Below, in pieces: positions 22,236-31,434 of a stretch of 64,000 nucleotides of DNA. The stretch covers positions 389 through 64,388 of the forward strand of contig DAHVMJ010000002.1 of assembly GCA_027319905.1 (NCBI GenBank), read 5' to 3'. This stretch comes from Candidatus Micrarchaeota archaeon (GTDB lineage: Archaea > Micrarchaeota > Micrarchaeia > Micrarchaeales > CABMGC01). Each line of letters opens with the position of its first letter. The first letter of the stretch is position 1. The translations under genes and the position numbers were made by a program. Under the pieces are notes generated by a model. The model was given only the letters and a program-made list of their open reading frames with translations, made no database searches and was not told the DNA's origin.

Positions 22236-24869
22236 TTATGTATTCGTAAGCCCGAAAGCCTGCCACTCATTCACAGAAGAGGCTATCGAGGAAAGCCCTG
22301 GAGAGGTGTAGGTGCCTGAAAAGTAAGGATAAACGAATCCGCCCCCTGTAGCTATACCGTTGTTGCTGTTTCCGCTGTAGTCATTGGCGTTCCCATTCAG
22401 CGGCCACCAGCCGACTAGGTTCGAAGTGAACGGAATACCCGCCATGCCTTCCTGGTATAACTGCTGGATCTGCGTTCCGGAGAGCGCAGCGCTGTACATC
22501 TGCGCGTCAGCCACGCTGCCATTAAAGCTGTCTCCCGTGTTGGATCTGCTGCCTATGAATCCGTCTAGTCCAGTGCCCTGCAGTGATATGGCGTTGTAGG
22601 CTGCGCTGCTCGCAACCTGGTTGCCGTTGATCCATAGGCTCACCGCGCTCCCGTTGTATCTGCTTACCAAAAAGTACCAATTACCTAGCTGAATCGCGCC
22701 GGCCGCGCTTTTCGCCTCTGACCAGCAATTCGTAACCGTGCATACCCACGTCTCGGCTTCTTCGGTGCCGCTGTCATTCACAGCTATGATTGGATTTATT
22801 TCATCTCCCAACGCAGAGTCGGCGCCTAAGATCTCCTGCCTTCCGCTGTGGCTGCCACTGTTCCACTTTGCCCATATCGCCATTGTTGCTGCGGTTCCTT
22901 GGAGGAGGGCGTTGGAGGTCGCTATCGTTATGTTCGCTCCCCTCCCGTTTAGTTGCGCAGTCTGCACTGTGCCTCCCTGTGCTTCAAGCGGCATATACCC
23001 AAGATACAACTGCGGCAGTGTGTTAGACGCGCAATTGCCGTTTGATGTGCACGAGAGTATACCGGGTATCGGAGAGAGCTTCGTAGGCACGGGAGTGTTG
23101 AGTATGCTGTCCCTGCTGTAGTTCTGCAGCAGGTCGTACGAAACGCCCGTGGCTGCGCCATTGTTTCCCTGCCCGCTGTAGTCGTTCGCATTGCCATTCA
23201 GCGGCCACCAGCCGGCAACATTTGAGTTGGTCGGAGGCACTCCAGAGATGCCTTCTTGATAAAGCCTCTGGATCTCAATTGCCGAAAGGGTGGTGTTGTA
23301 AACCTGCACGCCAGAAATGTCGCCTATAAAGTCGTACGCGCTCATCTTCCCCAGACTGCTCCCGATGCTGAATGTGCCGTCGACGACACTCTCTGAGTAG
23401 GTGCTCCACGTTACCGAAGAGAGCCCGTTGACATATAATGTGCCCGTGGAAGGCCCCTGAACAAAGACAATCTGGGTCCAGCTATTTAGCGGTACTGAGT
23501 TCGACGACTGCGCCCCGGTCTGGGCCCAGCCGTTGACGTTTATTTTACCATCTGATTGGTATGCAATCTGTATAGAGTTCGAGCTGCTCCCTTCGTACAC
23601 GATTACATTGGCTGTGGAATAAGATGTGCCTGAGCCCAGCGCTTTGGGATATATCCACGCTACTATCGATATGCCGTGTTTGTTTAGTGACTGAAGACCG
23701 GGCATGCTCACATAGCTGCTGCCTCCGAACTGCCCGGCCTGCGTATTGTAGTTCGAGAAGCTGAAGATGCCGTTAGGTGACTGGGTATTGAAGCTTCCTT
23801 GGCTCCTTGACAAGTACGAGGAAGTGAACGGAGAAGCGAAGTAGTAGCCGTTGCTTATCGCGCTCTTCAGACCCTCTATGTCCAACGTTTCCAAAGCTGG
23901 CCCGTAGAGCAGTACCTTCGTTCCAGAAGGCATAGATTGCAGTATGTTGGAAGAGCTGGGGTAGATCAGGTAGGCCACGGTCGGGAGGGTCGAGGGTGCG
24001 ATATACGCTACAAGGCCCGCATAGCTGTTCTCGCAGCTCTCCAGACCTATGGCGTTGTACGTTTCGAGTATGATGTTTGATTCGAGCGCAGAGATCTTGG
24101 AAGGAATGGATGTGCACGAGGCGCCGCTCACCGAGTTGCTCGCAAGCCAGTATGTGGTTCCATACGCGTATGCAAGCACGTTTCCGCTCGTCGCTTGAGC
24201 ATTTCCGATAACACGCGTCAGGTTGCCAAGTCCAGAAAAGACCACAGGCCTGTAAATTCCCTGCTGGGCGTAGAGAAGGTCAGGGGTGCCGTTGAGCGAG
24301 ACAGTCGCGTTAACCGGTATGGTGTAGGTGTAGCTGACGCCTGAGACGTTGAACGATATCCTCTCCGTGTAAGAGACTGCAAGATGATACGGGTCTGCCT
24401 GGAACACGCTTGGTGTGCTCTCGTTTATCGATTTGAGCTGAGATGCGAACCCCAGAAGCGTGGCTACCGACGTGTTGTATGCCTTCAGCGTCAGGTTGCC
24501 CATGGAGTTCTGTGGGTATCCTGATGTGTCGTTAGGCAGTACCCCGTTGACCATAAGGTCAGAGAGGTAAAGGCTGGTGTTTGAGATGAAGTTCGATTTC
24601 CTAAGGTTTGGGGTAATCTCATAGTTTGCCAGCACTGCGATCGCCTTGCTTAGGCTCGATGCCGCGAACGCGCCCGCGCTGGCCTTCAGCGCCCCGGCAT
24701 AGTTGTTGGAGGTTGACGAGATCGTCAGCGACTGCGCTATGTTGTTGGAGCTTATGTTGAGCAGCGCAAACGCGAAGAGCTCCGCAAGCAAGAGCACGAA
24801 TATGATCAGCATGATGAGTGTCATCAGCTGACCCTTGCTCGATCCCAGTCCCATCGAACCTAGCTCCAT
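22236..24869 (-). CDS. Giant prepilin-like surface protein with two LamG modules
   Basis: Leader GSSKG|QLMTLIMLIIFVLLL. Two copies of GWWPLNGNANDYSG are each followed by a LamG_3-type core ending ..VQ(V/M)Y..LS..(E/Q)IQ.LYQEG. Confidence 0.75.
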   Translation of the reverse strand: MELGSMGLGSSKGQLMTLIMLIIFVLLLAELFAFALLNISSNNIAQSLTISSTSNNYAGALKASAGAFAASSLSKAIAVLANYEITPNLRKSNFISNTSLYLSDLMVNGVLPNDTSGYPQNSMGNLTLKAYNTSVATLLGFASQLKSINESTPSVFQADPYHLAVSYTERISFNVSGVSYTYTIPVNATVSLNGTPDLLYAQQGIYRPVVFSGLGNLTRVIGNAQATSGNVLAYAYGTTYWLASNSVSGASCTSIPSKISALESNIILETYNAIGLESCENSYAGLVAYIAPSTLPTVAYLIYPSSSNILQSMPSGTKVLLYGPALETLDIEGLKSAISNGYYFASPFTSSYLSRSQGSFNTQSPNGIFSFSNYNTQAGQFGGSSYVSMPGLQSLNKHGISIVAWIYPKALGSGTSYSTANVIVYEGSSSNSIQIAYQSDGKINVNGWAQTGAQSSNSVPLNSWTQIVFVQGPSTGTLYVNGLSSVTWSTYSESVVDGTFSIGSSLGKMSAYDFIGDISGVQVYNTTLSAIEIQRLYQEGISGVPPTNSNVAGWWPLNGNANDYSGQGNNGAATGVSYDLLQNYSRDSILNTPVPTKLSPIPGILSCTSNGNCASNTLPQLYLGYMPLEAQGGTVQTAQLNGRGANITIATSNALLQGTAATMAIWAKWNSGSHSGRQEILGADSALGDEINPIIAVNDSGTEEAETWVCTVTNCWSEAKSAAGAIQLGNWYFLVSRYNGSAVSLWINGNQVASSAAYNAISLQGTGLDGFIGSRSNTGDSFNGSVADAQMYSAALSGTQIQQLYQEGMAGIPFTSNLVGWWPLNGNANDYSGNSNNGIATGGGFVYPYFSGTYTSPGLSSIASSVNEWQAFGLTNT

Positions 24870-30963: not shown

Positions 30964-31434
30964 CTATACCTTCGGCGTCATGTAAACGCAGGGCACGAGG
31001 TTGTTGATCGGGCACGCTGACGTCGCAGTGACGTTTACCAGATAGGCGCCAGTGGAGGTTATGCCCCCGAGGTTGCCGCTCACGTTCACTGGAGTGTATG
31101 CGGTTATGTAGCTGAGCCCCGATGGCGATGTGATGACGAAGATTATCTCGTGCCCGACGCTGTTGTTCACGTTGCCCACGTAGATGAAGCGTACATTGGG
31201 AGGTACCTGTATCTGCGCAAGCTGCATCGCCGGCGGTCCCTCGCTGCCCACGAGCGTCGCGATGCTCGCCAGCTTGCTGGCTGCCTGCTGCGACTCTATG
31301 GCCGAGAGATTCGTATTGGCTCCGGCGAGCTGTATGAACGCTATCACCACAAGCGGGAGCAGTATCGCGAGACCGAAGGCTAGCGTGACAAGCAGCTCGA
31401 AGCTCGACTGCAGCCTCATTGCGCTATTCCTCAT
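30964..31434 (-). CDS. Small prepilin-like protein, first gene of the prepilin operon
   Basis: Leader MRL|QSSFELLVTLAFGLAILLPLVV (Q+1, E+5). Confidence 0.7.
   Translation of the reverse strand: MRNSAMRLQSSFELLVTLAFGLAILLPLVVIAFIQLAGANTNLSAIESQQAASKLASIATLVGSEGPPAMQLAQIQVPPNVRFIYVGNVNNSVGHEIIFVITSPSGLSYITAYTPVNVSGNLGGITSTGAYLVNVTATSACPINNLVPCVYMTPKV

Follow-up and report, generated by a model that had tools for sequence, protein, structure and literature searches.

Whether very large proteins carrying lectin-like domains may be subunits of a pilus, and what a pilus made with them would be used for, are questions raised by five consecutive minus-strand genes (22236-31434) located in the 64,000-nucleotide window analyzed here, which spans positions 389-64388 of contig C22 in a Micrarchaeota genome of 855 kb (40 contigs, 91% complete, G+C content about 54%). 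Public records assign close homologues of its proteins to Micrarchaeota, Micrarchaeaceae or Micrarchaeales, and the source organism is a small, probably host-dependent DPANN archaeon. The genes, called p156, p1132, p182, p722 and p877 from the length of their products in amino acids (aa), converge on an operon encoding a pilus assembly ATPase and its platform proteins. An earlier note on this DNA had taken the five products for prepilin-type proteins tied to the adjacent pilus machine, and the large three for lectin-type adhesins. The checks made agree with this reading. They include the conservation of N-terminal signatures, the presence of an A24 peptidase in the genome, an order-wide linkage to the machine, structure models made up by a helix plus a head, and the matches of the N-terminal parts of p156, p1132 and p877 to pilin-like proteins which lack LamG modules. 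With a probability of about two in three, we regard the five genes as coding for the filament-side subunits of an archaeal 'system 1' (Epd-like) pilus, with a lectin tip complex.

The operon and its pilin-type N-termini

The coordinates of the five genes are confirmed in the table of open reading frames (ORFs). p156 (30964-31434, minus strand as the other four; 156 aa) is a small pilin-like protein with the leader MRNSAMRL|QSSFELL, the bar marking the putative cleavage site. p1132 (27564-30962, 1132 aa, leader MPAKKL|QIALEY) features a pilin module of about 170 aa followed by four LamG modules, p722 (24860-27028, 722 aa, MKG|IVFTMD) a BamB/PQQ-type propeller at about aa 100-450 and one LamG, p877 (22236-24869, 877 aa, MELGSMGLGSSKG|QLMTL) an N-terminal module of about 380 aa and two LamG. 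The remaining gene, p182 (27028-27576, 182 aa from a TTG, MKA|QFWSFD), encodes a second small pilin-like protein. Overlaps are found where they had been described (24860/24869, 27028, and 27564/27576), and the single-nucleotide gap corresponds to position 30963. The 182-aa gene is present, and its size is to be corrected: the start is more likely ATG 27567 (27028-27567, 179 aa), because public gene calls hold exactly the 179-aa protein and matches in genomes start at residue 4. This ATG makes an ATGA overlap with the p1132 stop. The first ATG of both p156 and p877 agrees with the leader lengths of the orthologues, M1 of p156 giving a leader of 8 aa.

The five N-termini read RL|QSSFE, KL|QIALE, KA|QFWSFD, KG|IVFTMD and KG|QLMTL, as had been claimed, each followed by about 20-25 hydrophobic residues, and the hydrophobic stretch begins directly after the putative cleavage site. 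All have a basic residue at -2; at -1, three proteins have G or A and the other two, p156 and p1132, have L. Signatures were followed through orthologues from 10 related genomes and through 35 homologues from databases. All 35 homologues of p156 keep Q+1, S+3 and E+5, with L, A, G, S or I at -1. The 11 p1132 orthologues likewise keep Q+1 and E+5, with L, G, A or S at -1. The p182 orthologues share QFWSFD with an invariant D+6, and nine p722 orthologues the motif K[GA]|xxFTxD, of which K, F, T and D+6 never vary. Orthologues of p877 feature [KR][GA]|x[LF][LM]T, are never acidic at +5/+6, and have an invariant Glu at about +17 to +18. Conservation of this kind is more than chance. Leu is the majority -1 residue in the p156 family, Ile and Ser being accepted too (alignments A2 and A3). 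No homology was detected among the five proteins beyond the N-terminal helix, and only p1132 and p156 can be aligned over leader and helix.

The two small proteins were modeled with AlphaFold2 from family alignments. p182 is predicted to form a helix of 54 residues (3-56) topped by an alpha/beta head, with a predicted local distance difference test (pLDDT) score of 87, p156 a 62-residue helix (4-65) followed by a seven-strand beta domain (pLDDT 74, one of the five models being confident). The architecture of both is pilin-like, and it is this architecture which suggests a pilin fold. Foldseek matches of the models to ribosomal S3, SSB and GFP (E>0.01) were dismissed as weak and meaningless. 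Two invariant Cys residues (C141 and C149) are found near the C-terminus in the p156 alignment A2, together with conserved NVS and NVT sequons; the Cys pair is reminiscent of bacterial type IVa pilins, in which a disulfide closes a C-terminal loop.

The LamG and propeller content of the three large proteins is borne out by the Pfam scan, in which matches at E<=0.01 were listed. Four Laminin_G_3 stretches were found in p1132 (E 1e-70), two in p877, and one in p722 next to a PQQ_2/BamB match (E 5e-16), for a total of seven LamG modules (4 + 1 + 2) and one propeller in the operon. At the same threshold p156 and p182 have no Pfam match. The best PDB match of the p722 propeller is BamB (8orr, E 2e-11); the p722 search returned only BamB/PQQ propellers and one uncharacterised protein over the LamG region, and sequence and profile searches of the PDB gave nothing for the p156 profile nor for p1132. 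The part of p877 which had been described as rich in N-glycosylation sites deserves the name locally, 10 of 16 sequons being clustered in aa 38-216, not for the protein as a whole, the total being no higher than in composition-matched shuffles. A whole-protein excess of sequons was rejected for the large proteins in general, none emerging against shuffles of the same Asn/Ser/Thr-rich composition, and the p1132 total is likewise not above that of shuffled sequences. Matches of the three large proteins to the NCBIfam model 'TafC fimbrial protein' were also discarded, as they involve the LamG part only (23-68 bits vs. a cut-off of 410); TafC belongs to the Tat-dependent fimbriae of haloarchaea (PMC11821415). 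In public records p182 is 'hypothetical', p722 is named 'PQQ-binding-like beta-propeller', 'BamB' or 'LamG-like', and none of the five proteins is called a pilin.

Assembly machinery, conservation and origin of the large proteins

The facing operon, transcribed from the plus strand, is led by a gene encoding a putative accessory coiled-coil protein (16532-17740; only coiled-coil-type matches), which adjoins the ATPase gene in all syntenic loci. The ATPase (17745-19271, 508 aa) is of the FlaI/T2SSE type (Pfam T2SSE, E 2e-33); the FlaI model is its best NCBIfam match (259 bits, below the cut-off), and the protein is 59-84% identical in syntenic loci across the order. Next comes a second putative accessory protein of 216 aa without family match (19280-19930), which holds this position between ATPase and platform genes throughout the order. 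The platform protein is encoded in two halves, the first (19948-21234; one T2SSF, E 6e-14) having a Gln/Pro-rich N-terminal extension and being syntenic across the order, the second (21318-22235; one T2SSF, E 4e-14) showing weak ArlJ/UpsF matches and ending with a stop codon that abuts the p877 stop. A search of the genome for a prepilin peptidase gave one Peptidase_A24 match above the Pfam cut-off, on contig C11. The corresponding ORF is 317 aa long and has the motifs FDVFNKRNVPD and GAGD, which we take to be the catalytic-aspartate motifs on the model of FlaK and PibD.

Synteny was analyzed in 19-kb stretches taken from 14 genomes, covering the genus as well as two sister families, f1 (its own) and f2. 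All ten genes keep their convergent layout in the genus and in f1; the arrangement is order-wide, with p156 missing from the locus in f2. Identities to the same-genus genome are high for the ATPase (84%), the second platform gene (TadC2, 87%), p156 (88%) and p182 (79%), and lower for the large proteins (p877 53%, p722 52%, p1132 47.5%). The p182 protein was matched in 132 of the 201 genomes sampled in the phylum, with strong matches and one copy per genome all over the order; p156 was found in 88 of 91 genomes of the order, always as a single copy, over an identity range of 39-88%. The genes p1132, p182, p722 and p877 are always linked, and in one order. In f1, p156 is at the head of the operon, directly after a gene for a CBS-domain protein; in f2 it resides 70-690 kb off the locus, which keeps the other four genes. 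The major pilin of archaeal systems is usually the smallest and the best conserved, and is sometimes encoded by a stand-alone gene (PMC4858521). Being the smallest and best conserved of the five, and a stand-alone gene in the sister family, p156 is the best candidate for the shaft pilin.

Relatives of the operon devoid of LamG were met at greater distance. The profile of the p182 family, searched against 1.84 billion representatives at E<=1e-3, drew 796 clusters, and remote members carry the canonical KG|QYFSFD. In a class-level relative (L026) and in a metagenome contig (L028) all five N-terminal signatures are found in one operon, on small proteins without LamG. The order of the genes is KG|LVFTID (186 aa in L026, 224 aa in L028), KG|IFFT or SG|FFFA with no acidic residue (554/573 aa), KA|QVSTE or TG|QATTE (147/189 aa), KG|QSSVE or RA|QAAVE (180/155 aa), and KG|QYFSFD (171/173 aa), which corresponds to the cyclic order p722, p877, p156, p1132, p182 of the window. 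Profile comparison with hhalign aligns the p156 family with the 147-aa protein of L026 (probability 95.5%, E 1.6e-8, 109 columns), p1132 aa 1-175 with the 180-aa protein (96.2%, E 2.2e-9, 144 columns), and p877 aa 1-390 with the 554-aa protein (92.7%, E 4.3e-7, 344 columns). With L028 the values are 92% for the p156 module, and 85% for the p1132 module (155-aa protein). p182 is linked to its counterparts in the LamG-less relatives by sequence search.

Because the same five signatures, the same cyclic order and the profile matches occur without LamG, the large proteins would derive from older, smaller minor pilins, to which LamG modules were added C-terminally in this order. Judging from the alignments, p1132 is a small pilin with four appended LamG, p877 has gained two LamG, its 'N-glycosylation-rich region' is the old, large acid-less minor pilin, and p722 probably gained propeller and one LamG likewise. 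The LamG and propeller additions are common to both sampled families of the order. A different class member may have come to size by another way: in two loci of another family of the same class (L024, 6223-14769, plus strand; L025, 7886-12865, minus strand) the p182-type gene adjoins genes for giants of 1269-1659 aa. These start with K[K]A|QTAVEFLTTYGWV and lack the WWPL-type LamG linker, as if pilin-type proteins had become giants there independently.

Divergence of the large proteins is mosaic. LamG modules end in a near-invariant linker, GWWPLNGNANDYSG, located in p1132 at aa 352, 689 and 913. Among congeners, 100-aa windows of the three large proteins are 21-29% identical in LamG cores, vs. 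62-82% in pilin modules and linkers. Taken singly, LamG modules often match the equivalent position in relatives with a score no higher than that of paralogues in their own genome. For example, the first LamG of p877 reaches 84 bits with a paralogue on C11 and at most 66 bits in relatives, and the second shares 68% identity with one congener but only 28% with a closer one. The pattern fits fast diversification, or exchange, of the binding parts. About 60 nt of linker-coding DNA are 80-97% identical among some 30 copies in the genome, the flanking LamG DNA having no similarity, and two copies inside p1132 are 97% alike at the DNA level. Five copies reside in the window (22357-22422, 23155-23214, 28170-28232, 28843-28901, and 29854-29918), about 25 others elsewhere in the genome. 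The linker stretch could be a recombination site for the swapping of LamG modules. Gene conversion between LamG genes was considered and not upheld, since only the linker stretch of about 60 nt is similar, and the conserved peptide can by itself account for most of that identity.

Possible partners of such exchanges are numerous in kind. In a scan of all ORFs, about 26 genes, corresponding to some 3% of all genes, were found to encode proteins of about 300 aa made up by a near-invariant pilin-type N-terminus, [KR][ALSG]|QSAMEYLMTYGWAILII, and a single LamG. Three of them are found complete in the window, all on the minus strand (48887-49786, 53012-53923, and 58763-59725), a fourth (1-858, plus strand) is cut by the window start, and about 22 more are elsewhere.

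Proposed function, rival readings and known systems

If the five genes provide the subunits of a pilus, assembly may be pictured as follows. The A24 peptidase would remove the leaders, and the ATPase and the platform pair would lift the subunits from the membrane, polymerising them via the N-terminal helices. p156 would build the shaft, and p1132, p182, p722 and p877 a minor-pilin complex, which would start the filament and end at its tip. p877 is placed at the top of the complex because it is the only member without an acidic residue at +5/+6, like bacterial GspK/PilK; lacking this residue, it would not neutralise the N-terminus of a subunit above. This logic of the acid-less cap is established in the case of GspK/PilK and of S. 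sanguinis PilA (PMC9934059). The tip would display the propeller and all seven LamG modules, for lectin-type binding of glycans of the host cell or of the matrix. Tip location, leader cleavage and glycan binding are what we infer by analogy with these systems. A bolder version, in which the linked four are the archaeal counterpart of GspH-I-J-K/PilH-I-J-K capped by p877, and provide a scaffold for exchangeable lectin heads, LamG cores being swapped at linker sites with the roughly 30 single-LamG pilin genes to make a combinatorial device for host recognition and host range, is speculative, and we would not expect it to hold in full.

Several observations weigh against the pilus. Two of the proteins have Leu at -1, a position where Gly or Ala is preferred by the prepilin peptidases characterised so far, and the cleavage point is therefore not certain: either the pocket of this peptidase is wider, or cleavage occurs elsewhere than assumed. 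Leu, Ala, Ser or Gly before Gln are also the rule in the about 26 other pilin-like LamG genes of the genome, and RL|Q and KL|Q are therefore less of a worry. The FlaFind pattern would pass p877 only, and failure of the other four in searches of this type may explain the public names 'hypothetical', 'BamB' and 'PQQ-binding-like'. The Pfam model PF04021 (Class_IIIsignal, QxSxE) touches the N-terminus of p1132 only among the five (11.4 bits vs. a cut-off of 23.7), and over the whole genome all its matches are below cut-off; the model is short (27 positions), and in the controls eight genomes had any match, with Methanocaldococcus jannaschii as the sole archaeon and one above the cut-off. Foldseek found no significant match of either small-protein model to any solved pilin in the PDB. 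The p722 N-terminus aligns with the 186-aa protein of L026 (92%, E 6.4e-7) over 29 columns, which correspond to signal and helix only. Two further pilus-type ATPases, on contigs C11 and C33, and the about 26 other pilin-like LamG proteins are encoded in the genome, so that the pairing of the five subunits with this particular machine is tentative. As to function, the reasoning on a cap based on Glu5 derives from bacteria, and the lectin function of the LamG modules is assumed from their fold family.

Part of these observations would suit another explanation, that is, that the five proteins have ordinary Sec signals or uncleaved anchors, and are lectins associated to the envelope or the S-layer whose position beside pilus genes has no mechanistic meaning. 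The low Class_IIIsignal score, a Leu at -1 atypical of prepilin peptidase sites, the lack of structural matches to solved pilins and a public annotation naming none as pilin all point that way. The explanation is nonetheless very improbable. Q+1 and E+5 or D+6 are invariant beside a basic residue, and the leaders are 2-13 aa long without a separate hydrophobic core ahead of the motif, which suits class III rather than Sec signals; Gly, Ala, Ser and Leu interchange at the aligned -1 position among orthologues, remote p182 relatives have a canonical KG|Q, and the linkage to ATPase and platform genes is kept across an order. A pseudopilus resembling type II secretion, working as a short piston for protein export or for the exchange of DNA or metabolites, with LamG and propeller recognising the cargo, is given only a slight chance too. 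Four accessory pilins, one of them acid-less, also describe GspH-I-J-K (PMC9934059), and DPANN cells must import much from their hosts (PMC5498576). Hypervariable LamG cores, however, fit variable external ligands better than a conserved cargo. It further counts against a pseudopilus that we know of no secretin-independent one serving secretion in archaea.

Display without a long pilus is a stronger competitor, though still an unlikely one. Large class-III-signal proteins which bind ligands depend in Sulfolobus on a pilus-type ATPase and a membrane protein (the Bas system), and for the sugar-binding ones display in a bindosome has been proposed. By the same token the proteins of the window might be processed by the peptidase, handled by ATPase and platform, and form a lectin assembly on a short stalk or anchored to the surface. 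Three of the five subunits are very bulky, and awkward in a regular filament; the ATPase matches the BasE model (E 1e-41); and the locus has no canonical short Epd-type major pilin, the only one seen adjoining a different ATPase on C11. As in the bindosome, large putative ligand-binding proteins with class III signals are encoded beside a pilus-type ATPase. The cargo of the bindosome, in contrast, consists of substrate-binding proteins of ABC transporters, whereas the system here includes a small conserved pilin plus four accessory members, and at the equivalog level the ATPase is not of the BasE type (NF053672, 143 bits vs. a cut-off of 1000), scoring below its FlaI match. The small, conserved, single-copy p156 accompanies the system across the order, and a fixed set of four accessory pilins, one acid-less, resembles filament-priming complexes (PMC9934059). 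Pili-like connections between ARMAN cells and their hosts have also been imaged (cited in PMC5498576).

A pilus of the system 1 kind finds its closest term of comparison in archaea. Two platform genes are the hallmark of system 1, which has been reported from DPANN and whose components include class-III-signal proteins with domains that bind sugars (PMC13705601); the same clade has been modeled with at least five minor pilins and two large DUF2341 (LamG-clan) proteins likened to PilY (PMC4858521). As in system 1/clade 1 (Epd, Methanococcus maripaludis), a FlaI-type ATPase and a two-gene platform are found in the window, along with five genes for putative class-III-signal proteins, several with Q+1 and E+5, and large proteins of the concanavalin/LamG clan. 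Unlike Epd, the locus has neither an EppA-type peptidase, the sole A24 peptidase being on C11, nor a short head-less major pilin, the -1 residue is often Leu, and the large lectin proteins themselves bear a pilin N-terminus. The earlier note had called the latter far larger than typical archaeal minor pilins; their size is as measured, and large class-III-signal proteins in archaeal pilus loci have precedent (PMC4858521, PMC13705601, PMC5498576).

The same phylum provides a second case. 'Ca. Mancarchaeum acidiphilum' Mia14 is reported to encode two systems for pili, of which one resembles that of Methanococci, along with a single peptidase of the FlaK kind and an expanded set of LamG genes, some of them linked to pilus loci (PMC5498576). 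Pilin-type N-termini of LamG proteins, a fixed five-gene set and LamG-less ancestors are not described in the passages of that paper considered here. Compared by description, the LamG locus of Mia14 lies on a genomic island, vs. a core, order-syntenic location here (PMC5498576).

In bacteria, PF13385 is among the commonest modules grafted on modular pilins, and S. sanguinis PilC has a lectin module in a tip complex (PMC8179133, PMC9934059). The proteins analyzed here are built in the same manner: an N-terminal pilin module is followed by independent modules, and p1132 and p877 align with stand-alone LamG-less proteins. Pilin modules are joined by linkers to lectin modules of the concanavalin/LamG type, as in S. 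sanguinis PilC with PilA and PilB (PMC8179133, PMC9934059), and a few minor pilins, one without acidic position 5, are predicted as cap, as in the S. sanguinis set (PMC9934059). In contrast, the motif is of the archaeal class III (Q/E) type rather than the N-methylation motif IPR012902 by which the bacterial set is defined, so that the proteins are not expected to belong formally to that set, and up to four LamG per protein plus a propeller are present. The likeness is one of design, not a demonstrable common descent of the fusions. PilY1/PilC of type IVa pili is a large propeller adhesin which works with the minor-pilin complex, and p722, with propeller plus lectin, would take a comparable position. 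PilY1 itself is no pilin and attaches to the minor pilins via its C-terminus; unlike it, p722 has a pilin-type N-terminus of its own, and a propeller matching BamB/PQQ. The Pfam scan of p722 yielded PQQ_2, Beta-prop_ACSF4 and Laminin_G_3 only, and nothing of the PilY1 family at E<=0.01.

How DPANN archaea find and attach to their hosts is largely unexplained, and pili-like links have been imaged between ARMAN cells and wall-less Thermoplasmatales hosts (PMC5498576). No molecule has been assigned to these links. The locus is a concrete, conserved candidate for attachment, with a motor, a probable shaft pilin, and a four-member set whose recognition parts change fast within the genus. The modular pilins of the locus are an archaeal parallel to the bacterial ones, many of them from the similarly reduced bacteria of the candidate phyla radiation (CPR), and the locus would be a dated example of plain minor pilins turned adhesins by the addition of modules. 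Lectin pilins in bacteria and the linkage of LamG to pili in Micrarchaeota are already known in kind, and the case would not surprise a specialist. What the present analysis adds is p156 as the likely shaft pilin, p877 as a candidate acid-less cap, a -1 position that tolerates Leu, the descent of the large proteins from a bare set of five genes, and the mosaic at the level of domains; its value lies in a defined set of targets for work on the few existing co-cultures of Micrarchaeota.

The convergent junction and neighboring genes

The two operons meet as the earlier note had reported, TGA (22233-22235) on the plus strand abutting TTA (22236-22238), the stop of p877. No special meaning is attached to the zero-nucleotide junction, as such junctions are common in the genome and the gap varies in relatives. 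By rough ORF calls, the gap is <=0 in 48 of 166 convergent pairs and has a median of 16 nt, and the same junction ranges from 0 to 173 nt in relatives. A terminator scan at the junction found no hairpin-plus-T site, nor any run of at least five T within 1 kb past either stop.

At the other end, a CBS-domain gene (31424-32575, minus strand) is directly upstream of p156 and overlaps its start by 11 nt. The product has two Pfam CBS matches and a weak C-terminal match to Ribosomal_S30AE (HPF-like; E 0.002, below cut-off). The linkage to p156 is kept in the f1 loci L014-L017, and CBS genes adjoin some archaeal pilus loci in a recent survey (PMC13705601). The gene may be co-transcribed with p156, or be regulatory.

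The two additional ATPase genes reside outside the window. On C11 (about 52.1-55.2 kb) the ATPase gene is followed by two small membrane ORFs and by a gene for a 77-aa QSSLEY pilin, which looks like a short pilin of the Epd/Flp type. On C33 (about 47.3-50.2 kb) the ATPase gene is flanked by a gene for a 156-aa pilin, QSAVEFLTTYGWA (QSAVEF), and by a QSAMEY LamG gene, with no adjoining platform gene.

Two more ORFs of the window feature pilin-type N-termini. A 186-aa ORF (46796-47353, minus strand) starts with QSAMEYLMTYGWA, has no Pfam LamG match, and may represent a plain QSAMEY-family pilin. A longer ORF, of about 439 aa (about 51838-53150, plus strand), with the N-terminus RAQASLEYLLAFAAALGIML, gives the best Class_IIIsignal match of the genome (20.2 bits, just under the cut-off). 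A repetitive region rich in Asn, Ser and Thr, without LamG linker, follows the N-terminus, and the protein is another pilin-type surface protein.

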